Shown here: positions 1,538-64,000 of the stretch, one piece after another | Layout: every line of letters begins with the position of its first letter | How positions within the stretch are numbered: position 1 is the first letter of the stretch | Source: Gemmataceae bacterium | Lineage (GTDB): Bacteria > Planctomycetota > Planctomycetia > Gemmatales > Gemmataceae | DNA: 64,000 bases | Reading direction: 5' to 3' | Assembly: GCA_022616435.1 (NCBI GenBank) | Contig: JAKEET010000045.1 | Span: forward strand, 18,013-82,012 | Translations under genes and position numbers: made by a program | The notes under the pieces: model-generated | The model's input: only the letters and a program-made list of their open reading frames with translations | Database searches by the model: none | What the model was told of the DNA's origin: nothing

Positions 1538-1553
1538 AACCTCGCCGGTCGTT

Positions 1554-3252: not shown

Positions 3253-3350
3253 AGAGTTGAACCCACGCCGGGGCCGAAGGTCGCGAGAACTTGGCCGCCG
3301 TCATTCTTCGGTCCGAGTCAAAACGGACAGGTTGGAAAACCTATCCTACG

Positions 3351-4103
3351 TCAAATGGTGATCACCGTCCCCTGCCGCATCGGCGGCAGCGGCGCCTTGG
3401 CCAGGTCGAGCGTGTCCGGATAATGCGTGATGCGCAGCTTCTTGCGAATCGACGGCCGCACCGTCAACAAGTCGTCAAGATTGGTGTGCATGAACGCCGA
3501 GTTGGCCTCGTGGACGATCAGGTGGGCGTCGGCCAGCCAGTCGATGAGCGTCGGGTCGAACATGGTGTCGGCGCTGTAGCCCAGGCAGCGCTTGGCCGCC
3601 GTGCAACGCAACGCGATCGTCGGCACGCTGTGGATCGTCTTGCGGCACGCGATGCGAAATGGCCCGGCCTTGGTTTCCTCGCCCTCCGGCAACAAGCGCA
3701 GGTCGAAGAAATCATCCAGCGCGCGCTGCCGCGGCAAGGCGCCTGGCTTCTCGATCACCCATTCCATCGACCCTGACAGCACGCCGTTCCACAGCGAGTT
3801 GGCGACGTCGATGTGCGTGTACACGACCAGCGACCGCCCCAGGATGTAGCGGAAGTAATAACCGAGGCACTCCAGGCCGGAGACATGATCGCCGTGCAGA
3901 TGCGTGAGCACGATGGCGTCGATCTTGGAAACGTCGAACGCGACGCCGGCGGCCTGCGCCCCTTCGCGGACGATCTTGCGGATCGGATGCGGGCAATCCA
4001 CCATGAGCCAATGCCCGCCGCTTTCCAGCGCGAAGCACGAGGAGTAGTAGAGGGCCGAAAAGGCGTCGCCCGTGCCCAGACACAACAGTCGCAGATCGCT
4101 CAT
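3351..4103 (-). CDS. MBL-fold metallo-hydrolase (β-lactamase superfamily)
   Basis: MSDLRLLCLGTGDAFSALYYSSCFALESGGHWLMVDCPHPIRK...VLTHLHGDHVSGLE carries the HxHxDH motif. The ATG is the complement of 4101-4103 and overlaps the stop of the upstream cytochrome by 4 nt (ATGA coupling). The longer 469-aa ORF has a non-protein-like Arg/Pro-rich N-extension. Confidence 0.75.
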   Translation of the reverse strand: MSDLRLLCLGTGDAFSALYYSSCFALESGGHWLMVDCPHPIRKIVREGAQAAGVAFDVSKIDAIVLTHLHGDHVSGLECLGYYFRYILGRSLVVYTHIDVANSLWNGVLSGSMEWVIEKPGALPRQRALDDFFDLRLLPEGEETKAGPFRIACRKTIHSVPTIALRCTAAKRCLGYSADTMFDPTLIDWLADAHLIVHEANSAFMHTNLDDLLTVRPSIRKKLRITHYPDTLDLAKAPLPPMRQGTVITI

Positions 4104-5569: not shown

Positions 5570-5587
5570 GTTCGGATGTCGATTCTA

Positions 5588-5626
5588 TCAGAGGCTATCC
5601 GAAAAGGGGTCAGACCCCTCAAAATC
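5588..5626. repeat. REP-like palindrome family A (…GAGGCTATCCGAAAAGGGGTCAGACCCCT…). Related copies occur at 26993-27032 and 57243-57292
   Basis: Hairpin-forming sequence immediately 3' of the stop of the 5619..6503 gene. The same core is seen at two other loci, in both orientations. Confidence 0.6.
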
Positions 5627-6503
5627 CCCCGTACCACATACTCAGCGCGACGTGTTCGATCATCAACACGAGAAGGGCCCAGGCCGCCGGACCGTGCACG
5701 AGCAGCCAGAGCCGGCCGAGCTGGTGCAAGCGATACTCCAGGTCCATCGAACGCCGCAGCTCGACGAGCCCCCACAGGTCATCGAGGATCGGTTGCTGCT
5801 TGGCGTCGGCATAGCTGCGCGTGCGCTGATACCAGTTTTCCGACAAAGCTTCCGGCTCCGCCTGGGGATGCCACACCCAGCTCCAGAAGGTCAGCGGCCG
5901 CGCCAGGCAACCCTGCACGGCCGCCCCGCAGAAGCCGCGGATCACGTCAGGGCTCTCGGCCAGTTCTTTCTTGCGAACCAGTTCTTCCGCCGCTTGCAGC
6001 ATGAAGACGCGCTGCGGCTCCAGACGCTCCAGGCCGAATTCCCGGGCCACCATGCGCGGCAGGAAGGAGTAGAGCAACTTCTGGCCGTAGAAACCGACGA
6101 CGCCGGAGATCATGACGATCCAGGTCAGCCACACCAGGGCCAGCGTCAGGGGGCTGTTGGCCCGGCCGCGGCTGTGGACGATGACCAACAAGAACGCCAG
6201 GTACGCCGCGGCGATGTGCCAGCGCAGCCAGGCGGTCATCGGTGGGCCCTGTCGATAGCGGAAGCAGCGCCTGAGGATGTGCAGGTACGGGACCAGCATG
6301 GCGACGAACGCCCCGTAGCCGGCGAGCCGCGCCGCCGCGCGCAGCCCAAACGACTCCCATTCCGGCCCCAAGGCCACGAGAATCCAGAGCAGCACGAGCG
6401 CCGCGAAGAGGCCGATCGAGCCCGGCTGCAAGATGTCCCAGGTGAGGGATCGTTTTCCAGTGGTGCGCATGCCAGCATCCAACACGGCGTCATGTCGCCG
6501 CAC
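5619..6503 (-). CDS. polytopic integral membrane protein (≥5 TM helices, conserved His in helices; possibly a b-type cytochrome/quinol-interacting subunit)
   Basis: Hydrophobic helices (IGLFAALVLLWILVALG; YGAFVAMLVPYLHIL; WHIAAAYLAFLLVIVHS; LALVWLTWIVMISGVVGFY; LWLLVHGPAAWALLVLMIEHVAL). It sits between the cNMP/Fe-S gene and the decaheme cytochrome on the same strand. Confidence 0.55.
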   Translation of the reverse strand: MRRHDAVLDAGMRTTGKRSLTWDILQPGSIGLFAALVLLWILVALGPEWESFGLRAAARLAGYGAFVAMLVPYLHILRRCFRYRQGPPMTAWLRWHIAAAYLAFLLVIVHSRGRANSPLTLALVWLTWIVMISGVVGFYGQKLLYSFLPRMVAREFGLERLEPQRVFMLQAAEELVRKKELAESPDVIRGFCGAAVQGCLARPLTFWSWVWHPQAEPEALSENWYQRTRSYADAKQQPILDDLWGLVELRRSMDLEYRLHQLGRLWLLVHGPAAWALLVLMIEHVALSMWYGGF

Positions 6504-8747: not shown

Positions 8748-8977
8748 GACCGCTACCGCCGCCGCGCCAAGCGATTGGTGAGAGTCGCGGGGTTATCTTG
8801 GCGCGCCGGGGCCGGACAGGCAAGGATGAAAACGACCTCTCCGCGTCGCCAAGATGCGCAAGCAATGCGCGTCGCGCCGGTCAGTCACGACGAAACGCCA
8901 CGGTGGAACATGCCGGATGCTCATTCCTGCTTGACAGGCTCCGATCTGTCGAGTCATCTTAACTCACGGGGCGAGCG

Positions 8978-9052
8978 TCGCGGCGTGAGCGCGACGTGGT
9001 GTTCGAGCAGTTACTAACCCGCACACACGTCGGGCTCACGCCGCGACGCTCG
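8978..9052. repeat. REP-like palindrome family B (GGCGAGCGTCGCGGCGTGAGC … GGGCTCACGCCGCGACGCTCGCC). Related copies occur at 12537-12631 and ~47690-47760
   Basis: Inverted repeat with 21-bp arms and ~40-nt loop in the divergent intergenic region. It overlaps the 5' end of the longest ORF for the next cytochrome, which argues for a later start. Confidence 0.6.
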
Positions 9053-9070
9053 CCGTTGCTTGAGGTGAAC

Positions 9071-10495
9071 GTGCATCGGCGCCTCTTCGTACTGGGTTCC
9101 ATCCTGCTGTTCCTCGCCGCGGCGTGGGCGCGCCGCGGTCCGTCGGCTCAGGAGCCGTTGCCGCGCCGGGTTCCGACCCCTGTACGTTCCAACTTCGAGC
9201 TGCTTGGGGCCGGCTCGTGCGCCGCGCAGGCGTGCCATAACGCCGACCCTTTGAACGGGATGCAAGGCGGGGAATACCGGATCGCCTACGAGCGCGCTTT
9301 CTCGGGAGAGGCGCCGCACGTCAAGGACAAGCATGCTCAGGCGTTCGCAGTGCTTTTTGACGAACGGTCGCAGCGCATCGTTCGCCAGTGGAAAGGGCTG
9401 TCGGCAAGAGACACGGTTCATCCGGAGCGCGAAGCGTTGTGCCTTCGCTGCCACGTGCATCCGGACTACGATCGGCTTCCCGTTCGGTTCGCCGACGGCG
9501 TGGCCCAGTTTCGCCTGGAGGACGGCGTCAGTTGCGAGGCCTGTCACGGTCCGGCACAGCGCTGGCTGGCGGCGCACTTCCGGCCGGGATGGAAGAACCT
9601 GTCCTCCGCGCGCCGCGCCGAGTTCGGCATGACCGACACGCGTTCGTTGGCCGGGCGCGTGCGCATCTGCCTCGATTGTCACGGCGGCCGCCCGGACGCG
9701 CAAGTCGATCACGATCTCATCGCGGCGGGTCATCCGTGGTTGAAGTTCGAAATGGGCGATTATCACGCGCTCTGGCACAAGCATTGGGACGGCGCCAAGG
9801 ACAAGAAGCCCGGCACGGACCGGCGGGGCCGCGCCGACTTCGAGGCCCGCTTGTGGCTGGTGGGCCAGGTCGCATCCGCCAAGGCCGCGCTCGACTTGCT
9901 GGCGGCAAGGGCGCGCGATCCGAAACGTCCGTGGCCGGAATTCGCCGAGCAGGACTGCTTCGCGTGTCACCATGACTTGAGCGCGAAAGCAGGGCCGCCT
10001 GCCGAAGACGCCAGGGCCGGGGCGCCCGCCTGGAACGCGTGGTACACGGCCATGCTGCCCGCCGCGGTCGGCGAAGATGCCGCGAAGCTCGGCAAGCCGC
10101 TTGGCGAGCTGCGAACGCTGATGGCATCGTGGCGGCCGGATCGAGAGCAAGTCGCGGCACATGCTCGGGAGGCCGCCGCCCAGCTCCAGGCGTGGATCGC
10201 GGCGTGGGAACTCCACGAACCCGGGCCGCTCGCCGTCGACGCGATGACGCGACAACTGCTGGCCATGGGCGACGCACGCGCGTCACAGTCCTGGACGACG
10301 GCCGCCCAGTGGCAGCGCGCCCTATCGGGAATGGAGCGGGCGCGTCAGGATATGAAGGTGCCGGCGCCGGCCTGGTCCGTGCGGCTGCCGCTCCTGGAAA
10401 AGGCCCTGCGGCTGCCGCCCGGTTTCGCGAGTCCGCACGGCTACGATGCCGCGGCAGTCCGCGAGATCATCCGGTCCATGCACGAATCCAAGTAG
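9071..10495 (+). CDS. pentaheme cytochrome c, paralog 1 (signal peptide). The start is uncertain: GTG 9071 or 9065, and the longest ORF starts at GTG 8996
   Basis: CAAQACH, CLRCH, CEACH, CLDCH and CFACHH heme motifs. VHRRLFVLGSILLFLAAAWA is signal-like. GAGG precedes the GTG at 9071. It is paralogous to 10504..12072 and 22342..23721 (shared AAGHP[WP]L and DC[FY]ACHHDL blocks). Confidence 0.75.
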   Translation: MHRRLFVLGSILLFLAAAWARRGPSAQEPLPRRVPTPVRSNFELLGAGSCAAQACHNADPLNGMQGGEYRIAYERAFSGEAPHVKDKHAQAFAVLFDERSQRIVRQWKGLSARDTVHPEREALCLRCHVHPDYDRLPVRFADGVAQFRLEDGVSCEACHGPAQRWLAAHFRPGWKNLSSARRAEFGMTDTRSLAGRVRICLDCHGGRPDAQVDHDLIAAGHPWLKFEMGDYHALWHKHWDGAKDKKPGTDRRGRADFEARLWLVGQVASAKAALDLLAARARDPKRPWPEFAEQDCFACHHDLSAKAGPPAEDARAGAPAWNAWYTAMLPAAVGEDAAKLGKPLGELRTLMASWRPDREQVAAHAREAAAQLQAWIAAWELHEPGPLAVDAMTRQLLAMGDARASQSWTTAAQWQRALSGMERARQDMKVPAPAWSVRLPLLEKALRLPPGFASPHGYDAAAVREIIRSMHESK

Positions 10496-10503
10496 GGGGC
10501 GCC

Positions 10504-12072
10504 ATGTCCGCGAAGCTCATTCTCGCCGGCGCGGGTCTCACGTGCCTCGCGGCTTGCTTCTGGCAACCCTCGGCTCTCGAGCGCGCCGGCGCGGGAGACG
10601 GCAAACCGGCGCTCACCTACTTCGGCAACAGCACCTGCGCCGAATGCCACAACGAGGAGAAGATCCCGCCGAAGAAGAAGGTCGATTTCTCCATGCGCAC
10701 GGAGATGCACACCTGGTATCAACTCGACAAGCACAAGGACGCGATGAAGGTGCTGCTCGAGAAGCGCGGGACCCAGATCGCGGCACGCCTGGGCATCAAG
10801 GGCAAGCTGACCGACGGCAAGACCTGGAACAAGGACTGGGATCAGTGCGTGAGCTGCCACGGCGTGGTCGTGCCGCCGGGGGCCAAGCTCGACGCCTCGT
10901 TCGAGGACCACGAGGAACGCATCAGGAGCGGCGTGAGCTGCGTGTTCTGCCACGGCGCCGACGCGCGCTGGGTCGAGAAGCACGCCACCGACATCCTGGG
11001 CACGTGGGCCAAGTCCACGCGCGCGGAAAAGGAAGCCAAGCACGGCCTCGTCGATCTCTGGGACCCCGTGAAGCGCGCCGCCCTGTGCAGCGAATGCCAC
11101 ATCGGCAATGCGCGCAAGGGCAAGGTGGTCACGCACGAAATGTACGCCGCCGGCCATCCGCCCCTGCCCGGCTTCGAGATCCTGGCGTTCAGCGAGGCCA
11201 TGCCGCGGCACTGGGAGACCTGGTCCGAGAAGCTGGCGCGGCTCCCGAAAAACAAGGCGCTGTACGAACATGCCTATGAAACCAAGGCCGAGGCGTTCGA
11301 CGGCGAGCAGGTCCGGCTTCTGAACGTGTCGTCCGTGGTGGCCTTGCGGGCCGCGATGCAATTGGTCCACGATCTGGCCCGCCGGGACATCGACCATCCG
11401 AACGCCAAGGCGCCCGCCTGGCCGGCGCCCGCATGGCCGGAGCTGGCCGCGTTCGATTGCTACGCGTGCCATCACGACCTCAAGTCCGACAGTTGGCGGC
11501 ACCTGCGGACGACCGCGGGCCGGCCCGGCCGCCCGCACCTGCGTCCCTGGCCCAAGGTCTTGCCGGCCAGCGCCGCACGGCAAGCCGCCCAGCACGGCGC
11601 GGCTCCGTTGGCGGACGAATATCACAAACGCCTGAAGGACATGGGCGACGTGTTCGATCAAGCGCCGTTCGGCGACCCGCGCGCCGTCGCCGACAAGGCG
11701 GGCGCCGTGGTGACGTGGTGCGACCAGATGCTGAGCGCGTTGCCGAAGGACCAGGCCGCCGGTCGCAACGTGCTGATGGCCCTCTTGAACCGTCCGAAGG
11801 GGGAACTGCTCGATTTCGATTCGGCCCGGCAAATCGCCTGGGGCGCTCAAACCCTGCTGCCGGTCGTGGTCCCGGAGGCCGGCAAGCGTGCTGAAGTCAA
11901 AGTGCAGCTCGAGGCGCTGCGGCAGCAACTGATGTTGCAGCTTCCCAGAGGGCAAGTGCGCATCGCGGAGGACTTCTTGCCGCAGGTGTTGAAGCGCATC
12001 AGCACGTATGATCCGCGGCAGTTCCAGCAGACCATGGAAGCGCTCGCGGCGGAGGTCTTCCGCGACCGCTAG
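10504..12072 (+). CDS. pentaheme cytochrome c, paralog 2 (signal peptide)
   Basis: MSAKLILAGAGLTCLAACF signal. CAECH, CVSCH, CVFCH, CSECH and CYACHH motifs. A strong SD (AGGGGG) sits 6 nt before the ATG at 10504. The longer 677-aa ORF overlaps the previous gene and is rejected. Confidence 0.85.
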   Translation: MSAKLILAGAGLTCLAACFWQPSALERAGAGDGKPALTYFGNSTCAECHNEEKIPPKKKVDFSMRTEMHTWYQLDKHKDAMKVLLEKRGTQIAARLGIKGKLTDGKTWNKDWDQCVSCHGVVVPPGAKLDASFEDHEERIRSGVSCVFCHGADARWVEKHATDILGTWAKSTRAEKEAKHGLVDLWDPVKRAALCSECHIGNARKGKVVTHEMYAAGHPPLPGFEILAFSEAMPRHWETWSEKLARLPKNKALYEHAYETKAEAFDGEQVRLLNVSSVVALRAAMQLVHDLARRDIDHPNAKAPAWPAPAWPELAAFDCYACHHDLKSDSWRHLRTTAGRPGRPHLRPWPKVLPASAARQAAQHGAAPLADEYHKRLKDMGDVFDQAPFGDPRAVADKAGAVVTWCDQMLSALPKDQAAGRNVLMALLNRPKGELLDFDSARQIAWGAQTLLPVVVPEAGKRAEVKVQLEALRQQLMLQLPRGQVRIAEDFLPQVLKRISTYDPRQFQQTMEALAAEVFRDR

Positions 12073-16180: not shown

Positions 16181-18217
16181 ATGGTGCGCATGGGCGGCTG
16201 CGGGAACAGATCGCGCCGGAACCGATCGCCGTGGATCGCCGGGCTCGGCCTGAGCATCTGCTTGGCCGGCGGGTGGTGCATCGGCCGCGCCCAACCTACC
16301 GACCTGCCGCCGTCCGACCGGCGGCACTCGACCCATCTCGAGGACACAGCCACTGCTCGGGCGGCCGCCGCGCCGGACTCCGAACCGGGCAACGATCGGA
16401 AAACCCCCGAGGAAGCTCCTGCGCCGGCATCGGCCCATAACAATCCGACATTCGGCTACGTGGAAGAAGAGTCCGAAAGCGCCCCGCCCGAAAGCGCCCC
16501 GCCCGAAGCGCCGCAGGTCGAGCCGATCGCCGCCCCGTTCCGCACGCCCATCGACGCCCCGCTCGGCTTTACCGGCCGGTCGGGCGTGCTGCCGCGCGAA
16601 GGGCAGACCGATCCGCGCTTCGTGCCGATGGAGGATCGCTGGCGCATCGGCTTCCCGGAGTGGGACCGCTACGGCAAGGGCCATCCGCCCGTGGACGATT
16701 ATCCCTACGTCACCGGCCGCCGCATCGACCCGTACAATCAAAACGTCCTCAAGGGCGACTTCCCGATCCTCGGCCAGAACACGTTCCTGACGATCACCGG
16801 CACGAGCCGGTCGATCTTCGAGTACCGCGAAGTCCCCATCCCGACGACGCCGTTCGAAACCACGGTCAATCCGGACAGCTTTGCCTTCTTCGGCCGGCCG
16901 AATCAGTTCGCGTACCTGCACTTCTTCGCCTTGTCGCTGGACCTGTTTCACGGCGACGCCGCCTTTCGGCCGGTCGACTGGCGCGTCAAGGTGACGCCGC
17001 TCTTCAACGTCAACTATCTCGCCGGGCAGGAAGTGGCGGTGGTGAGCCCCAACGTCCGCCGCGGCGTCGATCGCGGCCGAAGCTGGTTTGCCCTGGAAGA
17101 GTGGTTCATCGAGACCAAGCTCGCCGACCTGGGCCCCAACTACGACTTCGTCTCGATCCGGGCCGGCGCGCAGCCGTTCCTCAGCGATTTCCGCGGTTTT
17201 GTTTTCAGCGACATCAACCGCGGCGTCCGCCTGTTCGGCAACCACAACTCGAACCGGCAGCAGTTCAACGTCGCCTTCTTCGATCAGCTCGAAAAGGACA
17301 CGAACTCCGGCCTGAACACGTTCGACAGCCGCCAGCAGCGCGTCCTCATCGCCAACTACTTCGTGCAGGACTTCATCTTCCCCGGCTACACGGCCCAGTG
17401 GAGCATGCACTACAACCACGACGATCCGTCGTTCCACTTCGACAAGAACGATTTTCTGGTGCGGCCCGATCCGGTCGGCGTGTTCCAGCCGCACGGGCTG
17501 GACGTGGTCTACCTGGGCTGGACCGGCGACGGCCACATCAACCGCATCAACATCAATCACGCGTTCTACTGGGCGTTCGGCCGCGATTCGCTGAACCCGA
17601 TCGCCAACCAGGGGCAGGACATCAGCGCCCAGATGGGGGCGATCGAATTGTCGTACGACCGCGATTGGATTCGTTTTCGGACGTCGTTCCTGTGGTCGTC
17701 CGGCGACGACGACCCGCGCAACAGCCACGCCACCGGGTTCGACGGCATCTTCGACAACCCGAACTTCGCCGGCGGCGAGTTCAGCTACTGGCAGCGGCAG
17801 GCGGTGCGGCTGTTCGGCGTGAACCTGGTGAATCGCGAGAGCATTTTTCCGAATCTGCGCGCGAGCAAGATCGAAGGCCAGAGCAACTTCGTGAACCCCG
17901 GCCTGTTCCTGGTCAACGTCGGCGCCGACTTCGAGATCACGCCGAAGCTGCGGCTGATCACCAACGCGAACCTGTTGTGGTTCGAGAACACCGAGGTGTT
18001 GAAGACCTTCGTCTTCCAGGAACGCATCGAGCGGCACATCGGCGCCGATTTGAGCGCGGGCGTGGAGTACCGGCCGTTCCTCAACAACAACGTGATCTGC
18101 AACTTCGGTTTTTCGAGCCTGCTTCCCGGACAGGGCTTCAACGACCTCTACGACAACATCCGCGCCGAACGCGGCCCGCTGGTGGCGGCGTTCGTGGATT
18201 TAATTTTGACGTATTGA
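16181..18217 (+). CDS. large outer-membrane β-barrel protein (putative porin), immediately upstream of and translationally coupled to a multiheme cytochrome
   Basis: Signal peptide. Many amphipathic aromatic-rich strands (FLTITGTSRSIFEYREV; VLIANYFVQDFIFPGYTAQWSMHY; LDVVYLGWTGDGHINRININHAFYWAFG; GLFLVNVGADFEITPKLRLITNANLLWFE) and a C-terminal aromatic residue. The stop TGA 18215-18217 overlaps the ATG 18217-18219 of the next gene. Confidence 0.6.
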   Translation: MVRMGGCGNRSRRNRSPWIAGLGLSICLAGGWCIGRAQPTDLPPSDRRHSTHLEDTATARAAAAPDSEPGNDRKTPEEAPAPASAHNNPTFGYVEEESESAPPESAPPEAPQVEPIAAPFRTPIDAPLGFTGRSGVLPREGQTDPRFVPMEDRWRIGFPEWDRYGKGHPPVDDYPYVTGRRIDPYNQNVLKGDFPILGQNTFLTITGTSRSIFEYREVPIPTTPFETTVNPDSFAFFGRPNQFAYLHFFALSLDLFHGDAAFRPVDWRVKVTPLFNVNYLAGQEVAVVSPNVRRGVDRGRSWFALEEWFIETKLADLGPNYDFVSIRAGAQPFLSDFRGFVFSDINRGVRLFGNHNSNRQQFNVAFFDQLEKDTNSGLNTFDSRQQRVLIANYFVQDFIFPGYTAQWSMHYNHDDPSFHFDKNDFLVRPDPVGVFQPHGLDVVYLGWTGDGHINRININHAFYWAFGRDSLNPIANQGQDISAQMGAIELSYDRDWIRFRTSFLWSSGDDDPRNSHATGFDGIFDNPNFAGGEFSYWQRQAVRLFGVNLVNRESIFPNLRASKIEGQSNFVNPGLFLVNVGADFEITPKLRLITNANLLWFENTEVLKTFVFQERIERHIGADLSAGVEYRPFLNNNVICNFGFSSLLPGQGFNDLYDNIRAERGPLVAAFVDLILTY

Positions 18218-21200
18218 TGGAGATCGTCGTGAACGGGAATGGATTCCATCACCGGGAATTGCCGCGCCGCCTCGGCGCGTTCGCCGCCCTCGCCGTCGTC
18301 GTCGCCGCCACGGTGTTCGCGTGCCACCGGCGGCCGGACTGGTTCGCACAGAGTCACGGTCAAGAACCCGGCGCTACGTACGGCGAGGTCAACCTGCTAT
18401 TCCAATCCAAGGAGCAAGCCTTCCGCAAGAGCGTCGGCTGCATCCAGTGCCACGAAGGCGCCCACGATCCGCACTACAAGGAAACGCTGAACCTGGGCTG
18501 CTGCGATTGCCACGGCGGCGATCCCACAACGACGGTCAAGGAATACGCCCACGTGGCGCCGCGCTTCCGCGATGCGTGGAAAAACTCCGGCAACCCCGTC
18601 CGCTCGTACACGCTGCTCAATCACGAAGCGCCCGAGTTCATCCGCTTCGTCAACCCCGGCGACTTGCGCGTCGCCCACATCAGTTGCGGCACGGCCGGCT
18701 GCCACGGCGCCGAGGTGATGCAGAACAAGATGAGCATGATGACCCACGGCTGCATGCTCTGGGGCGCCGCCCTCTACAACAACGGCGCCTTTCCGCTGAA
18801 GCAGGCCCGCTACGGCGAGAGCTACAGCATCAACGGCGTGCCGCAGCGCCTGCAAACCTGGCCGCCGCCCACCGCGGAAGAGATCACCAAGAAAGGCGTC
18901 GTCCCCTATCTCGATCCCCTGCCCCGCTTCGAGATGTCGCAGCCCGGCAACATCCTCCGCTTCTTCGAGCGCGGCGGCCGCTTCTTCCCCGAGATCGGCA
19001 TCCCCGAACGCCTCGAGGAATCCGGCAAGCCGCGCACCCGCCTCAGCATTCGCGGCCTGGGGACCCTCAACCGCACCGACCCGACTTTCGTCGGCCTGCA
19101 GCGCACCCGGCTGCTCGATCCGACGCTCAACTTCCTCGGGACCAACGATCACGCCGGCGACTATCGCTCCAGCGGCTGCACCGCCTGTCACATGGTCTAC
19201 GCGAATGATCGCTCGCCGATCCACTCCGGGCCGTACGCGAAGTACGGCCACCGCGGCACGTCGGCGAGCACCGATCCGACGATTCCCAGGGACGAGCCGG
19301 GCCATCCGATCGAGCACCGGTTCACCCGCGCCATCCCGACGAGCCAGTGCATCGTCTGCCACGTCCACCCCGGCACCAGCGTCATGAACAGCTACCTCGG
19401 CTACATGTGGTGGGACGAGGAAACCGACGGCCATCTCATGTATCCGAAGAAGCAGAAGTACCCCACGGCCGAGGAGTTCGTGCAGGCGGCGCTCAACAAC
19501 CCCGACGAGGCGTCGGCCCGTGGGCTGTGGTCCGACCCGGCGTTTCTCGAACGTGTGTCGGAGCTGAACCCGCACCTGAGGCACACGCAGTTCGCGGATT
19601 TCAACGGCCACGGCTGGGTGTTCCGCGCCGTGTTCAAGAAGGACCGCCGCGGGAACTTCCTCGATCACCAGGGCAAGATCATTCCGCACGTGTCAACCCA
19701 GCACTTGATGACGGCCATGAAGGTCCCGGAATTCGCGAAGGAGAAGTACCGCCAGCCGGAAACCCCCTCACCCCCAGCCCCTCTCCCCCGCGGCGGTGGC
19801 GGGGGGCGCAACGAGGTCGTCTCCGGCCGGGCCACTCCCGTCAACCGCGACGGCATCCCGGTCCACCTGATGGACATCCATCTGGAGCGCGGCATGCACT
19901 GCGTCGATTGCCATTTCGTGCAGGACGTTCACGGCAACGGCAAGCTGTACCAGGAAGTGCGGGCCGCCATCGAAATCCAGTGCGTCGATTGCCACGGCAC
20001 GATCACGAAGTATGGCGCGTTGCGCACCAGCGGGCCGGCCGCGGAAAAGGGTCCTGACACCTTTTTCGGGCGCGACCTGACGGCGCTGCGGACGCCGTTC
20101 GGCAAACGCCGCTTCGAGCAGCGCGGCGCCAGGATCATCCAGAATTCGATGGTCGAGAAGGACCTGAGCTGGGAAGTCCCGCAAGTGAAGGACGTGATCA
20201 CGCCCGGTCATCCGCGGTACAACCAGCTCGGCCATCTTGCCAAGACCGTGCGCTTCGAGTCGCAGGACAAGAACCACTTCGCCTGGGGAAGTGTGCCCGG
20301 CGGCGACGAGTGCAAGGTCGCCCACGCCAACCAGCGGATGAGCTGCATCGCCTGCCACTCGGCGTGGAACCCGAGCTGCTTCGGCTGCCATCTGCCGCAG
20401 CGGGCCAACAAGAAGATGCCCGGCCTGCACAACGAAGGCGAGGTGACCCGCAACTACGTCGCCTACAACTTCCAGACCCTGCGCGACGACGTCTTCATGC
20501 TGGCCAGGGACGGCGACGTCACCGGCAACCGCATCGGCCCGGCCCGGTCCTCGTGCGCCATCCACGTCGGCTCGTACACCGGCAACCGCGACTCCATCTA
20601 CGTCCAGCAGCAGACCATCTCAGCCGACGGCCTCAGCGGCATCGCCTTCAGCACCAACGTCCCGCACACCGTCCGCGGCGGGCCGGCGCGCGGCAAGGAC
20701 GGCCGCTATCTCCACCCGGAGGCGTACATCGGCGGCCGCGGCGAGACCAAGCAGTGCAGCGATTGCCACGTTTCGAAGAACGAGGACAACAACGCCATCA
20801 TGGCCCAGCTCCTGATGCACGGCACCGGTTACGTGAATTTCATGGGCCGCTATTGCTGGGTGGCGGCCAAGGACCACGGACTTTTCGGCGTCGCCGTCAC
20901 CGAGCTGGACGAGCCGCAGGCGGTGATCGGCAGCTATCTCCATCGCCTGGCGTTCCCGGACTTCTTCAAGAAGCATCACGACCGCGGCTACAAGCTCGAC
21001 AAGGCCCACGAGCACCCCGGCATCGACATCGGCGACAAGTTGCGGCGCCCGCTCAAGAAGGCCAACGTGCTGCAGGTGCAGCCGCGCGGCGAGTTCTTGG
21101 TCGCGGCGTGCGGCGAGTTCGGGGTGCGGGTGTTCGACATCGCCTTCATCGACAACAAGTCGTTCTCGGAGCGGATCTTGACGGCCCCGGTGTCGCCGCT

Positions 21201-22212
21201 GGGCCAGCAATTCTACGTGAAGACGGCGTTCGCCGCCGCGGTGGCGGCGCCCTGCACGCCCGCCCCCGATCCGACGCGCAACCAGAACCCGAAGAACAAG
21301 GAGCCGCAAGTTCATCCGCTCTTCGGATACCTGTACGTGGCCGACCTGCACGAAGGCTTGATCCTGATCGGCGCCGGCACGACCATCGACGGCAACCCGA
21401 CGAACAACTTCCTGCGCCGCGAGGTGACCTTCAACCCCGACGGCCTGCTCAACGGCGCTCGCAACGTGACCATCGTGGGCAACTACGCCTACGTGTGCTG
21501 CGACGCAGGCCTGGTGGTCGTCAGCATCGACAATCCGAAGAACCCGTACGTCACCGGCGTCGTCGGCGCGCCGTTCATCCGGGGCGCGCGGGCCGTGCAG
21601 GCCCAGTTCCGCTACGCCTTCGTGTGCGACGGCGAAGGGGTGAAGGTGCTCGACATCACCGATCCGGCCAGGCCGGCGCCGGTCAGCGCCGTGCGGATTG
21701 CCGATGCCCGGAACATCTACCTGGCGCGCACCTATGCGTACGTCGCGGCCGGGCATCAAGGGTTGGTGATCCTCGACATCACGAAGCCGACGCGGCCGGC
21801 GCTCGACCAGGTGTACAACGCCGGCGGGCATCTGAATGACGTGAACGACGTGAAGCTCGGCATCACCTACGTCAGCGAGTTCGCGTACATCGCCGACGGC
21901 CACAACGGCCTGCGGGTGGTGCAGCTCACGTCGCCGGAGACGCCGGGCAACCAGGGCTTCAGTCCGCGGCCGACGCCGCACCTGGTCGCGACCTTCCCGA
22001 TCCCCGAAGGCGGGCACGCGCTGTCCGTGGGACGGGCGCTGGATCGCGACCGCGCCGTCGATGAAAGCGGCAATGCCATTGGGGTGTTCGGCCGGATCGG
22101 GGCGCGGGCCCTCAATTTCGACGAGCAGCGGAAAATGTACCTCCGCAACGGAAGCGTGTGGCGGGTAAGCGACGATCCGGCGGATGGGATGTATCGCCAT
22201 CAACAGAAATGA
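18217..22212 (+). CDS. giant multiheme cytochrome c (~10 hemes) with C-terminal LVIVD-repeat β-propeller domain
   Basis: N-terminal TM/signal (LGAFAALAVVVAATVFA). Heme motifs CIQCH, CCDCH, CTACH, CIVCH, CVDCH x2, CIACH, CFGCH and CSDCH, plus a CGTAGCH (CX4CH) site. The C-terminus has repeated YAYVCCDAGLVVVSIDNPKNP / YAFVCDGEGVKVLDITDPARP / YAYVAAGHQGLVILDITKPTRP / FAYIADGHNGLRVVQLTSPETP blocks typical of LVIVD repeats. The upstream 1850-aa track ORF beginning at 16660 is an out-of-frame extension and is rejected. Confidence 0.8.
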   Translation: MEIVVNGNGFHHRELPRRLGAFAALAVVVAATVFACHRRPDWFAQSHGQEPGATYGEVNLLFQSKEQAFRKSVGCIQCHEGAHDPHYKETLNLGCCDCHGGDPTTTVKEYAHVAPRFRDAWKNSGNPVRSYTLLNHEAPEFIRFVNPGDLRVAHISCGTAGCHGAEVMQNKMSMMTHGCMLWGAALYNNGAFPLKQARYGESYSINGVPQRLQTWPPPTAEEITKKGVVPYLDPLPRFEMSQPGNILRFFERGGRFFPEIGIPERLEESGKPRTRLSIRGLGTLNRTDPTFVGLQRTRLLDPTLNFLGTNDHAGDYRSSGCTACHMVYANDRSPIHSGPYAKYGHRGTSASTDPTIPRDEPGHPIEHRFTRAIPTSQCIVCHVHPGTSVMNSYLGYMWWDEETDGHLMYPKKQKYPTAEEFVQAALNNPDEASARGLWSDPAFLERVSELNPHLRHTQFADFNGHGWVFRAVFKKDRRGNFLDHQGKIIPHVSTQHLMTAMKVPEFAKEKYRQPETPSPPAPLPRGGGGGRNEVVSGRATPVNRDGIPVHLMDIHLERGMHCVDCHFVQDVHGNGKLYQEVRAAIEIQCVDCHGTITKYGALRTSGPAAEKGPDTFFGRDLTALRTPFGKRRFEQRGARIIQNSMVEKDLSWEVPQVKDVITPGHPRYNQLGHLAKTVRFESQDKNHFAWGSVPGGDECKVAHANQRMSCIACHSAWNPSCFGCHLPQRANKKMPGLHNEGEVTRNYVAYNFQTLRDDVFMLARDGDVTGNRIGPARSSCAIHVGSYTGNRDSIYVQQQTISADGLSGIAFSTNVPHTVRGGPARGKDGRYLHPEAYIGGRGETKQCSDCHVSKNEDNNAIMAQLLMHGTGYVNFMGRYCWVAAKDHGLFGVAVTELDEPQAVIGSYLHRLAFPDFFKKHHDRGYKLDKAHEHPGIDIGDKLRRPLKKANVLQVQPRGEFLVAACGEFGVRVFDIAFIDNKSFSERILTAPVSPLGQQFYVKTAFAAAVAAPCTPAPDPTRNQNPKNKEPQVHPLFGYLYVADLHEGLILIGAGTTIDGNPTNNFLRREVTFNPDGLLNGARNVTIVGNYAYVCCDAGLVVVSIDNPKNPYVTGVVGAPFIRGARAVQAQFRYAFVCDGEGVKVLDITDPARPAPVSAVRIADARNIYLARTYAYVAAGHQGLVILDITKPTRPALDQVYNAGGHLNDVNDVKLGITYVSEFAYIADGHNGLRVVQLTSPETPGNQGFSPRPTPHLVATFPIPEGGHALSVGRALDRDRAVDESGNAIGVFGRIGARALNFDEQRKMYLRNGSVWRVSDDPADGMYRHQQK

Positions 22213-55871: not shown

Positions 55872-56038
55872 GGCGGCGCGGTTGCTTGAATCGCATTTTA
55901 GCGTGCGGTGCGTGGCTCGGCAAAGGCAATTGCGGCGCTCCGACCGGACAGGGCACGTTCTTTGGCATGGCAGCCGCCCGTCCCGCCCATTATCATCATC
56001 AGTGAGCGCCTGTCGGTCTGTAGTGAAGGATACCGTGC

Positions 56039-57241
56039 ATGTCGTTCTACCGTTTGATCTTCTACCACGCGATGCTCGGCGGCTGGGCCGCGTTCTTCGG
56101 CTGGCTGGTGAGCGAGGTGTTCCTGCTGCGGCGTTCGGGCGACCTGGGCACGTTGCCCGTGTTCTTCACCTCGGCCCTGGTCGGCGCGGCCATCGGCGCC
56201 GGCATCGCGCTGGTCACCGCGGTCGCCAACGGCCATTTCAAGGGCGTTGTCGTCCGATCTGTTTTCTGCCTGGCGGGCGGCTTCGCCGGCGGCGCGATGG
56301 GCGGCCTCATCGGCAACGTCATCTATAGCGTGTTGCCGTATTCGATCGTGCGCGTTCTCGGCTGGATGCTGATGGGGCTGGGGATCGGCGGCGTGGAAGG
56401 CCTGTTCGATCGCTCGGTCAAGAAGATTCGCAACGGCCTGATCGGCGGGGCCATCGGCGGCTTCCTCGGCGGCTTGTGTTTCGATCCCGTGGTCCGCTTC
56501 GTCGGCGGCAACATGTCCGGCCGGGCCATCGCCTTCGTCATCCTCGGCATGTGCATCGGCCTGTTCATCGGGCTGGCGCAGATCATCCTGCGCGAGGCCT
56601 GGCTCACGGTCGAGCAGGGTTTTCGTCCCGGCCGGCAATTCGTGCTCAACATCCCGGTCACCATCCTGGGAACGTCGGAAAAGGCGCAATTGTCGTTCAT
56701 CGCCTATGGCGCGAAAGGGGTCGAGCCGATCCACCTGCGCATCGAGCAGCAACCGGACGGCCATTTTTTGGTGCGCGACAACGGTTCGCGGACCGGCACG
56801 TTCGTCAACGGCCGGCGCGTGCAGGAAGAAGTGCTGCACCACGACGACGTGATCCAGCTGGGCCCGAACCTGGTGCGGTTCCGCGAGGCGGTCCGGCATG
56901 TGTCGGCCGACGGCGGCGCGCGGCGTAGGCCGCAGCCGGCCGTTGCGTTGCCGGAAGCGACGCCGATCATGGCGACACCGCCGCCCGTCCCGGCCCCAGG
57001 GGCGATCAAGTCCGGACCGCCGCCCGTGCCGGCGCCGGCCTCAGGGGCGATCAAGCCGGGGCCGGCGCGTGCGCCGGTGGCGCAGCAAGTAGCGATTCAG
57101 CCTGCGGCCGCCGCGCCGCCGGCGCCCAAGCCGGCGTCGGCTGGGCCGCGCGGCAAGCCGTGCCCCAAATGCGCCAAGCCGGGCACGCCGATCCCAGGGA
57201 CCGGCCACCATCTGTGCATGAGCTGCGATCTGAAGTATTGA
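56039..57241 (+). CDS. membrane protein with N-terminal TM bundle, central FHA domain, Pro-rich linker and C-terminal zinc-ribbon (CPKC...CMSC)
   Basis: FHA-like block GRQFVLNIPVTILGTSEKAQLSFIAYGAKGVEPIHLRIEQQPDGHFLVRDNGSRTGTFVNGRRV. Multiple glycine-zipper TM helices. Confidence 0.7.
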   Translation: MSFYRLIFYHAMLGGWAAFFGWLVSEVFLLRRSGDLGTLPVFFTSALVGAAIGAGIALVTAVANGHFKGVVVRSVFCLAGGFAGGAMGGLIGNVIYSVLPYSIVRVLGWMLMGLGIGGVEGLFDRSVKKIRNGLIGGAIGGFLGGLCFDPVVRFVGGNMSGRAIAFVILGMCIGLFIGLAQIILREAWLTVEQGFRPGRQFVLNIPVTILGTSEKAQLSFIAYGAKGVEPIHLRIEQQPDGHFLVRDNGSRTGTFVNGRRVQEEVLHHDDVIQLGPNLVRFREAVRHVSADGGARRRPQPAVALPEATPIMATPPPVPAPGAIKSGPPPVPAPASGAIKPGPARAPVAQQVAIQPAAAAPPAPKPASAGPRGKPCPKCAKPGTPIPGTGHHLCMSCDLKY

Positions 57242-57242
57242 G

Positions 57243-57292
57243 CGGCGATCCGAAAAGGGGGTCAGACCCCTTTTCGGATCGCCTCTGAAAGG
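57243..57292. repeat. REP-like palindrome family A copy (GATCCGAAAAGGGGGTCAGACCCCTTTTCGGATCGCCTCTGAAAGGATA)
   Basis: Perfect hairpin directly after the FHA-gene stop. It shares its core with the 5588 and 26993 copies. Confidence 0.65.
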
Positions 57293-57298
57293 ATAACG

Positions 57299-58462
57299 AT
57301 GCAACGCCTCATCGATGCCGGAGTTCTCGGGGTCCTGGTGTTCGCCCTCTTGCTCGTCGTCCTCGTCGACAAGCTGCTCAGCGGCCGGGACACGAGCGAC
57401 CAGCGCGTCATCTCGCAACCCGCGAACGTGACCCCATTCAAGGTGGCGACCCGGCCGCTGCGTCTGGCGGTGACCGATTCCCAAAAAGACAAGGACGGCC
57501 GCATCTGGGACGACATGGGCAAGCTGTTGTCGTCGCTGGGCGAAGGCTACCAGTTCACGCAGTTCCACGCCCGGCAGCTCCTGGACGGGAAGAAGATGGC
57601 CGACTTCGACGTCCTGTTTCTCACCTGCGCTCCCGGCGGGGCCGATCCGATTTTCGACGGCACCCCCCTGCGTGTCGAGCCGGCGTTTGCCGAGAACCTG
57701 CGCAACTTTGTCGCGCAAGGGGGCACGCTGTACGCCTCCGACTGGCGTTACGATGCGCTCGAAGCCGCCTTTCCCGACGTGGCCTCGCTCCGGCTCAAGG
57801 ATGACGGCCGCGCCCAATCCGTAACCGCCGACGTGGTCGATCCTGGTCTGCGCGACATGCTGCAGCTCGACACGGTCCCGCTCAATTTCGACCTGGACAA
57901 GTGGAAGACCGCCGCCTTCGCCGGCGACCGCGTCAAGGTGCTGATCGAAGGGAAGTATCAGCGGCAGCGCGGCGGCGTCAGCCGGGCGCCGCTGCTGGTG
58001 AGGTTCCAGTTCGGCAAAGGGACCGTGATCTTCACGTCGTTCCACAACGAGCGCCAGAACAGTGTCATCGAGCAGCAGTTGCTGAAGTACCTGGTGTTCA
58101 GCGCCGTCACCGCCCAGATCGACAATCAGGTGAACCGGACCCTGATTGAAGGGGGTTTCGCGCCCCAGAAACAGAACCTGCTGAGCGCCACCAAGGACAA
58201 TCCGCAGGTGACCTACACCTACCAGAGCACCAAGGCCGGAAAGATCCAGTTCGTGCTCGGCTTCCAGGACCGCGGCGCCAAGCTGCGTCTCGCCGTGGTC
58301 AGCCCCGGCGGCAAGAAGACCGAGCACGTCGGCACGTCCACGTTCGCCATCGAGGAGACCAGCACCGGACCCGGCGAATGGCGCTACACGGTCACGGCGA
58401 TCGAGCGGCCGTTTGACGAGTTTCCGTTCACGGTGACGGTGGCCGAGTCGGAAGGGCCGTGA
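57299..58462 (+). CDS. hypothetical protein with N-terminal TM anchor (387 aa), possibly co-transcribed with the FHA protein
   Basis: MQRLIDAGVLGVLVFALLLVVLV anchor. The rest is protein-like with no family assigned. Confidence 0.5.
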   Translation: MQRLIDAGVLGVLVFALLLVVLVDKLLSGRDTSDQRVISQPANVTPFKVATRPLRLAVTDSQKDKDGRIWDDMGKLLSSLGEGYQFTQFHARQLLDGKKMADFDVLFLTCAPGGADPIFDGTPLRVEPAFAENLRNFVAQGGTLYASDWRYDALEAAFPDVASLRLKDDGRAQSVTADVVDPGLRDMLQLDTVPLNFDLDKWKTAAFAGDRVKVLIEGKYQRQRGGVSRAPLLVRFQFGKGTVIFTSFHNERQNSVIEQQLLKYLVFSAVTAQIDNQVNRTLIEGGFAPQKQNLLSATKDNPQVTYTYQSTKAGKIQFVLGFQDRGAKLRLAVVSPGGKKTEHVGTSTFAIEETSTGPGEWRYTVTAIERPFDEFPFTVTVAESEGP

Positions 58463-61588: not shown

Positions 61589-62548
61589 ATGAATCGTCGC
61601 GGTTTCACGTTGATCGAGCTGCTGGTGGTGATTGCCATCATCGCCATCCTCATCGCGCTCCTGGTCCCGGCCGTGCAAAAGGTCCGCGAGGCGGCCGCAC
61701 GCACGCAGTGCCAGAACAACCTCAAGCAGCTGGCCCTGGCGTCCCACAATCACTGCGACGCCCGCAAGGCCTTCCCGCCCGGCGGCGGCGCCTTCATGGG
61801 CGGCAACCTCGCCAACCAACGGTTCTCGGCGCACAGCTACCTGCTCCCGTACCTCGAGCAGGACGCGGTGTATCGCCTCATCCATTTCACGGTGAGTCCC
61901 GACGCCGCCGCCAACGCCGCGGCCAGGGCCCAGGTGATTCCGGGATTCCTGTGCCCGTCCGATCCGCAGGGCATCGCCCCCAGCGGCTGGGCCGGCAACA
62001 ACTACGTGGCCAACTACAGCGCCGACATCCGCTGGCAGCAGGACCAGTCCGGAGCGAGCGGCGTGTACTGGTTTGCCAGCACGACCACCATGATGGGCGC
62101 CAACTTCTCCGACCTCAGAGACGGCAGCAGCAATACGGCGGCGTTCAGCGAGCGCCTCAAGGGGGACTGGAGCAACGCCGTGGCGACGGCCCGCACCGAT
62201 TTCTTCAACCCGGGCGCATCGCCGACAACCCGCGACCAGGCCATGAACGCATGCGAAGGGCTGGATCCGACCAACCTGGCTCTTCAGCAACGGTCCGACG
62301 GCGGGGGCTACTGGCTGCGCGGCTGGCACATGACCCTGTACACGCACGTGTCTCCGCCCAACGCGCGGGCATGTAATTTCAACAAGAACGCGACCGCGAC
62401 CATGCCGGCCAGCAGCGCCCACACCAACGGCCTGAACGTGGCCTTGTGCGACGGCTCGGTGCGCTTCGTGAGCAATTCGGTCAGCCTGGCCACCTGGCGG
62501 GCTCTGGGCTCGCGCGGCGGCGGCGAGGTGCTGAGCAACGATTTCTAG
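61589..62548 (+). CDS. DUF1559 protein with prepilin-type N-terminal cleavage/methylation domain and C-terminal H-X9-DG motif
   Basis: [54 protein letters not shown].... The C-terminus reads ...[21 protein letters not shown] (H-X9-DG). Confidence 0.9.
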
Positions 62549-62580
62549 GGGTCAGAGGTCAGGGGTCAGGAGTCAGAATC

Positions 62581-62988
62581 ATGCCCGCATCCGTTTCCCA
62601 ACAACACCTGCCTTGGCGACGGTCGATGGTGGCCGGCGCGGCCTGCCTGGTCTGCGGCCTGGTCGGCTGCAGCCGCGGTTCGCTGCCCGAGCAAGCAGAT
62701 CCCGACAAGGCCAAGCGGGCACTGCGGACGGCGCTGGCTGCCTGGAAAAAGGGCGAATCCATCGAGGCGTTGGCCAAGGGCTCGCCGCCGATCTACTTCA
62801 ACGATCCGAAAGTCCAGAAGGGTCTGCGCCTTGCGTCCTACGAAGTCAACGACAGCCATGAGTTCTTTGGCCAATCCGTCCGCGTCACGGTGAAGGCCAC
62901 CTTCGAACGAGACGACGGCGATGCCAAGGAGCGGCAACTGACCTACCTGGTGGACACGGCGCCGGTGGTCGTCATCGTGCCCGACTGA
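62581..62988 (+). CDS. small lipoprotein (lipobox LVGC), commonly found 3' of DUF1559 genes
   Basis: MPASVSQQHLPWRRSMVAGAACLVCGLVGCS... The ATG is at 62581. The longest ORF starts at 62446 in a GC-junk extension. Confidence 0.6.
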   Translation: MPASVSQQHLPWRRSMVAGAACLVCGLVGCSRGSLPEQADPDKAKRALRTALAAWKKGESIEALAKGSPPIYFNDPKVQKGLRLASYEVNDSHEFFGQSVRVTVKATFERDDGDAKERQLTYLVDTAPVVVIVPD

Positions 62989-63054
62989 TCTGCGCGGCCC
63001 GATGGCGCCGTGGCGTTGGCGCCGTGGCCGATTACGCCTCAACAGGAGAAACCG

Positions 63055-64000
63055 ATGAAAACTCGCATATGGTTCACCCTCGCCCTGCTGGCCGCGCCGG
63101 CGGCGCCGGCCCTGGCCGATCCCCCGGTGACCAGCAACGACGCGCCCGCTCCCGGACCCGTGCAACTCCGCATGTGGCTGGAGGCGATGGTGCAGGCGCC
63201 GTGGGCGGAGTGCTTCGGTCCGGATTTCCGCCGCTCCGAGGCGCTGCGGATGCTGCTCGCCGTGCAACGAAATCAAAAACTCGGCCCCGGCGTCGGCTGG
63301 TATGACCCCAGCCGGCGGACGCTGGATTGGCAATGGCTCGCCGCCCGCTTTGACGCCGACGCCGACGGCCACGTCGTTGCCAAGGAACAAAACGGCGCCG
63401 CCGACCTCTTCGCCGTGCTCGACCGCGACCGGGACGGAGCCGTGACCCGCGACGATCTCGATTGGTCGCAGAACTCCGCCTGGGTGCGCAACGACGCGCT
63501 GTCGCTGCGGTTCCTGCGCCTGATCGACTCCAACGGCAACGGCCGCGTCACCGACAAGGAATGGCTGGCGATGTTCAAGAAGATGGCCAAGGACCGGGAT
63601 CATTTCAACGCCGAGGACATGCGCTACGCGTTCATGGCCAGCGACCGCAACCGCGGCGGCGACGGCAAGGGCAAACGCGTCTTCAAGAAACACTGGCTCC
63701 GGTGCCTGGTCGAAGGCGATCTCGGTTCGCCGTTCGAGGGGCCGCGCCCCGGACAGGTTGCGCCCGACTTCACGTTGCCGACCCCCGACGGCCAGAAGCA
63801 GATCACGCTCTCGGATTATCGCGGCAAGAAGCCGGTGGTGCTCATCTTCGGCAGCTTCACCTGAGGACCGTACCGGGCCCAGTTTGGCGCCCTGGAGGAA
63901 CTCAACAAGCGCTATGGCGATCGCGCCGAATTCATTGCCGTGTACGTCCGCGAGGCCCATCCGACCGACGGGGCCAGTTCGCCGCAAAACGCGAAGGCCG
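63055..64000 (+). CDS. EF-hand (x3) + thioredoxin-fold (redoxin/deiodinase-like) protein with an in-frame TGA at 63862-63864 in the active-site position (candidate selenocysteine; ...VVLIFGSFT-U-GPYRAQFGALEEL...). The 3' end is beyond the window
   Basis: AGGAGAA SD before ATG 63055. Signal peptide present. EF loops DADADGHVVAKE, DRDRDGAVTRDD and DSNGNGRVTDKE. The redoxin N-terminus reads APDFTLPTPDGQKQITLSDYRGKKPVVLIFGSFT, then TGA, then an in-frame continuation GPYRAQFGALEELNKRYGDRAEFIAVYVREAHPTDG that is protein-like and matches the FGS[CA]TUPPF...EAHxSDG pattern of deiodinase-like selenoproteins. A candidate SECIS hairpin GGGCCCAGTTTGGCGCCC sits at 63875-63892. Confidence 0.55.

Follow-up and report, generated by a model that had tools for sequence, protein, structure and literature searches.

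At the 3′ end of a 64,000-nucleotide (nt) stretch of DNA from a Gemmataceae bacterium (assembly GCA_022616435.1, contig JAKEET010000045.1; the whole stretch is referred to below as the window), a gene for an EF-hand protein with a deiodinase-like domain raises the question of whether an in-frame TGA ends the protein or encodes its catalytic residue. The open reading frame (ORF) runs from the ATG at 63055 to a TGA at 63862-63864, immediately 3′ of ...KKPVVLIFGSFT, after which the same frame continues for 45 further codons without a stop up to base 63999, where the window ends (GPYRAQFGALEELNKRYGDRAEFIAVYVREAHPTDGASSPQNAKA). Beyond the TGA the frame is protein-like and runs into the deiodinase motif REAHPTDG. 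The database entry for the gene (MCI0681487.1, P0001 in our searches) is 100% identical to the fragment that precedes the TGA, ends there after 269 residues and is annotated as 'MAG: redoxin domain-containing protein [Gemmataceae bacterium]', MAG standing for metagenome-assembled genome. An original prediction, made from the DNA letters, had taken the TGA for a selenocysteine (Sec) codon standing in place of the active-site cysteine (Cys). The analysis described here supports this reading: we put at about 0.9 the probability that the TGA is decoded as Sec and is not a terminator, and the gene very probably encodes, from 63055 on, a single protein of about 410 residues, the last ~95 of which lie outside the window.

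Identity of the codon at the active site

A search of 5.8 billion proteins returned 1417 homologues (E ≤ 1e-5). Among the best 120 of these, whose lengths and termini were compared, the length distribution is bimodal, with one group of ~265 residues and the other of ~400 residues. All 67 short homologues terminate at ...FG[SN]FT, whereas all 53 full-length homologues carry an invariant Cys in the column equivalent to the TGA. At the DNA level, the short genes of four related loci stop at a TGA, and reading through it yields products of 406-412 residues whose C-terminal half is strongly conserved.

When GTDB genomes, one for each species, were scanned for the pattern KPVVLIFGS, 80 loci were added to these four, mostly from Gemmataceae, Isosphaeraceae, Pirellulales and other Planctomycetota; shorter genes with a deiodinase domain only also came up, in Acidobacteria, Chthonomonadia, Anaerolineales and others. 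The closest relative found in this way is 62% identical. Across the 84 loci and the window, the codon at the active site is TGA 83 times, TGC 8 times, TGT once and never TAA or TAG, a ratio (83:9) that is not to be read as an unbiased frequency, the scan pattern favouring Sec-type genes. The absence of TAA and TAG nonetheless appears telling despite this bias. A reassignment of TGA in the genetic code was considered and ruled out, since TGA serves as an ordinary stop in the coding-like frames of the window, and more often so than TAA or TAG.

Sec-type and Cys-type members of the family also differ around this codon. Sec-type members read FGSFT-U (U denoting Sec) and Cys-type members FGNFT-C, and the EAHPx motif is followed by DGA in the closest Sec-type relatives of the window gene and by DGW in Cys-type genes. 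Furthermore, a Cys located 65 residues downstream from the active site (+65) is present in 74 out of 75 Sec-type sequences versus 26 out of 53 Cys-type sequences, Phe being the common alternative in the latter.

If the TGA were a true stop, the locus would consist of a 269-residue secreted EF-hand protein and a separate short deiodinase-like gene, or else of a nonsense pseudogene. Such an arrangement matches the source record and the output of all gene callers, which in related loci use internal starts and call a separate fragment 3′ of the TGA, leaving paired fragments. In the window itself a GTG at 63940-63942 lies in frame 3′ of the TGA, and the statement of the original prediction that the downstream frame has no alternative start is correct for ATG but not for GTG, the kind of start that callers use in relatives. 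It also fits a true stop that the machinery for Sec insertion is known from loci of relatives and not from the window. However, a stop at this position would cut the thioredoxin fold ahead of its nucleophile, and the same catalytic codon is TGA in several Planctomycetota lineages and in a few other phyla. The frame past the TGA is about as conserved as the frame upstream, with 30 out of 45 residues matching the homologue in the related locus L001, compared with 63% identity overall, and the tblastn alignment of the window gene to this locus is unbroken across the TGA. In addition, the TGA is followed by a covarying hairpin, described below, which is missing in Cys-type genes. Termination at this codon is accordingly judged very improbable.

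If the codon were really TGC or TGT, misread in sequencing or assembly, and the protein of the Cys type, the error would involve a single base in a metagenome-assembled genome. This explanation is hardly credible: the identical TGA is found in dozens of independent assemblies, and Sec-type genes, with FGSFT-U, the RxQxG codons that encode the hairpin and the Cys at +65, differ systematically from Cys-type genes, which read FGNFT-C and lack the hairpin. The window gene carries the Sec-type signature.

Decoding of the TGA as Sec thus remains the preferred reading. The stop directly after ...VVLIFGSFT and the open, protein-like frame beyond it, both pointed out in the original prediction, were confirmed by translation, and the 45 downstream codons are conserved in homologues. 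Orthologues with Cys at the same codon, which that prediction had proposed to look for, were found among proteins (53 out of 53 full-length homologues) as well as among loci (nine with TGC or TGT). Those of its proposed sequence-level checks that were run all came out in favour of Sec at this position.

A covarying hairpin downstream of the TGA

The original prediction had also described a hairpin with a GUU loop 10 nt 3′ of the TGA, resembling a selenocysteine insertion sequence (SECIS). The hairpin is present as described, its stem beginning at 63875, 10 nt past the TGA (Table 1). In the window copy C63888 and U63893 are bulged, and C63873-G63895 and C63874-G63894 form extra pairs.

To compare the hairpin across the family, 60-base segments around the TGA of 77 distinct Sec-type genes were placed in a gap-free alignment. 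Columns 20-26 and 30-36, corresponding to window positions 63875-63881 and 63885-63891, form a helix of 7 base pairs (bp) that is paired in 91.2% of the cells over 76 distinct sequences. Six of the seven pairs change on both sides, in 83 such cells, and none of 500 column shuffles equalled the observed percentage of pairing, the double-change count or the covariation score. When the 3′ arm was displaced by one to three bases, pairing fell to 23-58.5%, and RNAalifold recovered the same core helix. The triloop begins with G in 75 out of 75 sequences.

The wobble base of the Arg codon pairs with the second base of an Ile, Val, Thr or Ala codon located five codons later. On the sequences compared, the covariation is not explained by protein constraint alone, because it joins a synonymous site to sites at which changes alter the amino acid. 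The hairpin is also absent from Cys-type genes, in which an average of 2.3 out of 7 pairs are in register, compared with 6.4 out of 7 in Sec-type genes, and this number is low even in Cys-type genes that keep RSQ[AS]G. The compensatory changes across the family, together with its absence from Cys-type genes, support the proposed SECIS-like nature of the element, and we infer that the hairpin at 63875-63891 acts as a bacterial SECIS to which SelB would bind.

Selenocysteine machinery in relatives and evidence weighing against Sec decoding

Genes for Sec insertion were found beside family members in related genomes. In the Planctomycetota MAG locus L076, genes encoding tRNA-SeC, SelB, SelA and SelD lie in a row, ~4 kb from a TGA-containing deiodinase-like gene (Table 1). 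In L067, a Gemmataceae MAG, selD is located ~4.6 kb from another member of the deiodinase-like family and itself contains an in-frame TGA at the catalytic position, which is followed by a strong 9-bp hairpin (z = -2.8). Among the 120 closest SelD homologues, 117 begin past that codon and are missing their N-termini, and the three full-length proteins have Cys (two) or Arg (one) at the catalytic position. Hence Sec-type SelD looks like the norm in the L067 clade, where it would be systematically mis-called. Searching for SelA with the L076 protein gave mostly Brocadia-like hits, and the top 120 included no Gemmataceae-named protein, so that the search is uninformative for Gemmataceae. A full set of Sec-insertion genes has been described in Gemmata obscuriglobus (PMC4807772). 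The presence of sel genes beside family members in relatives may be taken as indirect support for Sec decoding of the window gene.

Several observations weigh against this interpretation, in addition to the bias of the scan pattern mentioned above. In the 64-kb window, motif and tblastn scans found neither selA nor selB nor selD, and no tRNA-Sec was detected, the Rfam matches being three ordinary tRNAs. Nor does any Rfam family match at the hairpin. Taken alone, the window hairpin does not exceed shuffled versions of this GC-rich sequence in stability (z = -0.81 and -0.18); single-sequence folding energy, not being significant, was therefore dropped as evidence for a SECIS, and the significance of the window hairpin comes only from the comparison of sequences across homologues. 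The window copy is moreover one of seven sequences that form a subgroup with CGGGCCCAGUNUGG[CU]GC[CU]CU; these have two in-register mismatches and fold with one bulged base and two extra outer pairs. Finally, the gene is cut by the end of the window; homologues are the source from which its C-terminal half and the candidate resolving Cys were deduced, and export, Ca2+ binding, the selenium-sulfur cycle and the substrate are predictions.

Protein architecture and family

The window protein is a member of the deiodinase family. Profile searches were performed with the 315-residue fragment as query, in which Cys was substituted for the stop. The match to Pfam T4_deiodinase (PF00837) has an E-value of 3.9e-16 and 59.5 bits, against a cut-off of 27. 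Despite the truncation of the query, the protein also passes NCBIfam NF038285, 'deiodinase family protein', with 276.6 bits against a cut-off of 250. The latter alignment spans residues 60-314 and positions 7-260 of the 347 in the model; therefore, the model includes the EF-hand region, and the combination of EF-hands with a deiodinase domain is already a curated family. Several EF-hand models match too, and the three canonical Ca2+ loops are conserved in most family members. The fusion of three EF-hands to a deiodinase-like thioredoxin fold, as proposed in the original prediction, is thus upheld by loop patterns, Pfam and NF038285. A predicted signal peptide precedes these domains (Table 1), and the protein is probably exported.

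At the active site, FGSFT-U (residues 265-270) aligns to FGSCT-C(U) of DIO3. The flanking signature given in the original prediction, FGS[CA]TUPPF...EAHxSDG, is present, in the variant form FGSFT-U-GPY...REAHPTDG. The position aligned to the histidine of the DIO3 QHR motif, which we take to be His219, is His in only some of the bacterial family members.

The fold was examined with the closest full-length homologue, P0013, a Cys-type protein of 415 residues that is 51% identical to the window protein, and not with the truncated window protein itself. When P0013 was compared with all PDB sequences, mouse DIO3 (4TR3) came first (E = 1.9e-22), followed by DIO2 (9H48; E = 1e-13). An AlphaFold2 model of P0013, with 53 homologues as input, reached a predicted local distance difference test (pLDDT) score of 81 and a predicted template modelling (pTM) score of 0.82. 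With this model as query, Foldseek returned 4TR3 as best match (E = 2e-9, target template modelling score 0.78), then 9H48 and, after the deiodinases, the thioredoxin-fold proteins ResA, DsbE and AhpE. The alignment to deiodinase and peroxiredoxin-like families that had been suggested as a check hence places the iodothyronine deiodinases first, both by sequence and by predicted fold.

A rival explanation accepts the Sec residue and considers the protein as an antioxidant resembling peroxiredoxins or thiol-disulfide oxidoreductases, in which the EF-hands would be purely structural, with neither Ca2+ regulation nor dehalogenation. AhpC-TSA (38.1 bits against a Pfam cut-off of 26) and Redoxin both score above their Pfam cut-offs, and ResA, DsbE and AhpE are near in fold. 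A redox role was argued to be probable for the bacterial deiodinase-like proteins, thyroid hormones not being expected in bacteria (PMC1088965), and the usually high concentration of extracytoplasmic Ca2+ would favour a structural role of the EF-hands. On the other hand, both Pfam matches are weaker than that of T4_deiodinase, AhpC-TSA being well under its score, and deiodinases are the best match in sequence and in fold. The S-x-T-U, E-A-H and G-R-G-P motifs are conserved and shared with DIO3. The peroxiredoxin motif PxxxTxxC is absent from the window protein, in which Thr directly precedes Sec and no Pro is found at -7. The conserved Ca2+ loops and the confident inter-domain model (pTM 0.82) are compatible with a coupling of the two domains without proving it. 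An antioxidant of this kind is a serious possibility, to which we give somewhat less than even odds.

Proposed mechanism and function

Starting from a deiodinase-family selenoprotein, the following mechanism can be proposed. SelB-GTP with Sec-tRNA(Sec) would bind the hairpin at 63875-63891, and Sec would be delivered to the UGA at 63862. After the predicted signal peptide, the product comprises a helical domain with three EF-hand Ca2+ loops and then the C-terminal deiodinase-family thioredoxin fold, in which the predicted Sec270 occupies the place of the catalytic Sec of mammalian DIO1-3. The selenolate may attack an electrophile, which would be the oxygen of a peroxide or the halogen of an aryl halide, and the Cys at +65 may resolve the oxidised selenium by forming a selenenylsulfide, which an extracytoplasmic thiol reductant could recycle. 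The EF-hand domain is presumed to bind Ca2+ and might thereby stabilise or gate the catalytic domain.

Confidence in any specific chemistry is much lower than confidence in Sec decoding. The proposals can be joined into a Ca2+-gated, exported Planctomycetota selenoenzyme that would dehalogenate halogenated phenolics or perform other DIO-like chemistry with a Sec-Cys(+65) pair, in partnership with the DUF1559 pseudopilin-like protein and the small lipoprotein whose genes recur directly upstream. This combination as a whole is unlikely. If true, it would for the first time give access to the function of the DUF1559 family, which is hugely expanded, and would place the origin of deiodinase chemistry in bacteria.

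Comparison with known systems

A 2005 study of the Sargasso Sea by Zhang, Fomenko and Gladyshev (PMC1088965) recognised the deiodinase-like proteins as a family of bacterial selenoproteins that has Cys homologues and SECIS elements of the bacterial type, and reviews from 2022 and 2026 list the bacterial family as PF00837, with a UxxC motif and a single domain (PMC9312934, PMC13188914). The window protein shares with these proteins PF00837, Sec at the DIO catalytic position, the existence of Cys-containing homologues, a SECIS hairpin just past the UGA whose small apical loop includes a G, and a presumed redox function. In contrast, the motif of its subfamily is U-G-P-[YF]-R, in which position +3 is not Cys, and the protein has in addition a signal peptide and an N-terminal region of ~200 residues with three EF-hands. 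A literature search found no paper mentioning a fusion of EF-hands with a deiodinase-like selenoprotein, though NF038285 ('deiodinase_rel') models it, and among the papers found none characterises a bacterial family member. The window protein passes the cut-off of this model, and NCBI names full-length Cys-type homologues 'deiodinase family protein', whereas Sec-type members, among them MCI0681487.1, appear in truncated form under the names 'redoxin domain-containing protein' or 'hypothetical protein', so that the Sec residue goes unrecognised in public annotation.

The mammalian deiodinases DIO1-3 are the nearest match in sequence as well as in fold, with 32% identity over about 175 aligned columns for P0013 and with FGSxT-U, EAHPxDG and GGRGP in common. 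The animal enzymes differ by being membrane-anchored, by lacking EF-hands, by using a eukaryotic SECIS in the 3′ untranslated region and by acting on thyroid hormones.

A combination of Ca2+ sensing with redox activity is known from the eukaryotic selenoprotein N (SELENON), which has an EF-hand and a Sec-bearing thioredoxin-like domain (PMC10650576). SELENON differs from the window protein by its single atypical EF-hand, by a thioredoxin-like domain of another family and by its location as a membrane protein of the endoplasmic reticulum, and no homology between the two was detected in the searches made. Its Sec motif is SCUG. Calredoxin of Chlamydomonas (PDB 5E37) similarly has an EF-hand domain followed by a thioredoxin fold and gave a weak match to P0013 across both parts (E = 2.7e-5). 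Calredoxin, a chloroplast protein, has four EF-hands and no Sec, and its thioredoxin active site is CxxC, which is absent from the window protein, where the active site reads U-G-P-Y; nor does calredoxin have the deiodinase-family fold. SELENON and calredoxin are analogues of the window protein, not relatives.

The suggestion that an EF-hand-regulated Sec redox enzyme would be novel was therefore overstated, as NF038285, the 2005 family (PMC1088965), SELENON and calredoxin all precede it. The window gene is an additional, mis-annotated member of a known selenoprotein family and does not represent a new kind of system.

Gene neighbourhood and other features

The features of the window and of the related loci are listed in Table 1.

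Table 1. Coordinates of the selenoprotein gene, its elements and neighbours, and of selected features in related loci.
Sequence	Feature	Position	Strand	Basis or remark
Window	DUF1559 protein with prepilin-type N-methylation motif	61589-62548	+	Pfam SBP_bac_10/DUF1559 (5.5e-46) and N_methyl
Window	Small putative lipoprotein, lipobox-like LVGC	62626-62988	+	ORF list; start at 62581 or 62626; no Pfam match
Window	Shine-Dalgarno-like AGGAGA	63044-63049	+	5 nt 5′ of the ATG; read directly from the sequence
Window	EF-hand/deiodinase-family selenoprotein gene, 5′ part (315 of about 410 codons)	63055-64000	+	Translation, profile matches and lengths of read-through homologues; cut by window end
Window	Predicted signal peptide MKTRIWFTLALLAAPAAPALA/DPP (cleavage at the slash)	63055-63117	+	Hydrophobic N-terminus with AxA-like site, conserved in homologues
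Window	EF-hand loop 1, DADADGHVVAKE	63352-63387	+	Canonical 12-residue loop pattern; Pfam EF-hand matches
Window	EF-hand loop 2, DRDRDGAVTRDD	63421-63456	+	Canonical 12-residue loop pattern; Pfam EF-hand matches
Window	EF-hand loop 3, DSNGNGRVTDKE	63526-63561	+	Canonical 12-residue loop pattern; Pfam EF-hand matches
Window	Deiodinase-like thioredoxin-fold domain, N-terminal half, truncated	63718-64000	+	Pfam T4_deiodinase, residues 205-312
Window	UGA, predicted Sec codon, residue 270 in FGSFT-U-GPYR	63862-63864	+	Codon comparison; Cys in full-length homologues
Window	Bacterial SECIS-like hairpin	63873-63895	+	Minimum free energy structures; core helix 63875-63881 with 63885-63891; apical loop GUU 63882-63884
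Window	EAHPTDG motif (E300, H302), residues 300-306	63952-63972	+	Homologous to DIO3 EAHPSDG; invariant in the protein alignment; aligned to EEAHPSDG of 4TR3
L076	tRNA-SeC	1158-1253	-	
L076	selB	1255-3165	-	
L076	selA	3174-4598	-	
L076	ORF, may be yedF-like	4622-5335		Tentative label, from reading of the sequence
L076	selD, Cys-type	5332-6387		
L076	Short deiodinase-like gene	TGA at 10112		Selenium cluster (1158-6387) ~4 kb upstream
L067 (Gemmataceae MAG)	selD	4475-5530		In-frame TGA 4529-4531 at the catalytic position, SCAG-U-AGKL
L001	Tandem paralogues	8395, 10799, 12097		Same in L002 and L014
L005	Tandem paralogues	10796, 12084		

The DUF1559 gene, the gene for a putative lipoprotein of ~120 residues and the EF-hand/deiodinase gene together form a recurrent cassette (61589-64000 in the window), which is also found in 12 related loci (L001, L003, L004, L005, L014, L016, L022, L025, L028, L035, L049 and L064), even where the DUF1559 homologue is just ~43% identical. 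Out of 91 family loci, 25 have a DUF1559 homologue in the 3 kb upstream of the gene and 22 have the small protein there. Part of the co-occurrence with DUF1559 could be due to chance, because DUF1559 genes are very numerous in Planctomycetota.

In the closest relatives, Sec-type paralogues stand in tandem, two or three of them together, and every copy has a TGA and a hairpin of its own. For the third paralogue, reading through gives a protein that is 716 residues long and has an extra C-terminal region of ~300 residues, in which a CMD/AhpD-like match remains below threshold (14.2 bits against a cut-off of 23). No second deiodinase-like gene was found within the window, which ends before any tandem paralogue would come into view.

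Elsewhere in the window, two consecutive forward-strand segments at 56027-57241 and 57242-58462, in the same frame with a TGA between them, were considered as a second selenoprotein. This candidate was rejected in favour of two ordinary adjacent genes because the second segment has a start Met of its own, with a hydrophobic stretch at the N-terminus; the first closes with a Cys-rich tail. Several large ORFs rich in CxxCH, noted by eye in the translations at 4100-5584 (reverse strand), 8963-12072 and about 18200-22212 (both forward strand), suggest multihaem cytochromes c. Among the scanned loci, MAGs labelled 'uncultured Alcaligenaceae bacterium' (L012, L013 and L079) carry typical Planctomycetota-type family members, suggesting that these contigs are mislabelled or mis-binned.

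Significance

In public data the Sec codon splits or truncates the window gene and 67 of the best 120 homologues, which carry the names 'redoxin domain-containing' or 'hypothetical'. Because gene models are broken at this codon, the selenoproteomes of Planctomycetota are under-counted, and the presence of a TGA followed by an RxQxG-encoded hairpin provides a simple rule to repair such models. No new principle is involved. The subfamily joins EF-hands and a selenol active site of the deiodinase type in one protein, which is apparently exported, and its genes often stand in tandem and behind a DUF1559 gene; as such it offers a tractable system in which to study, in bacteria, deiodinase chemistry and the coupling of Ca2+ with redox activity.

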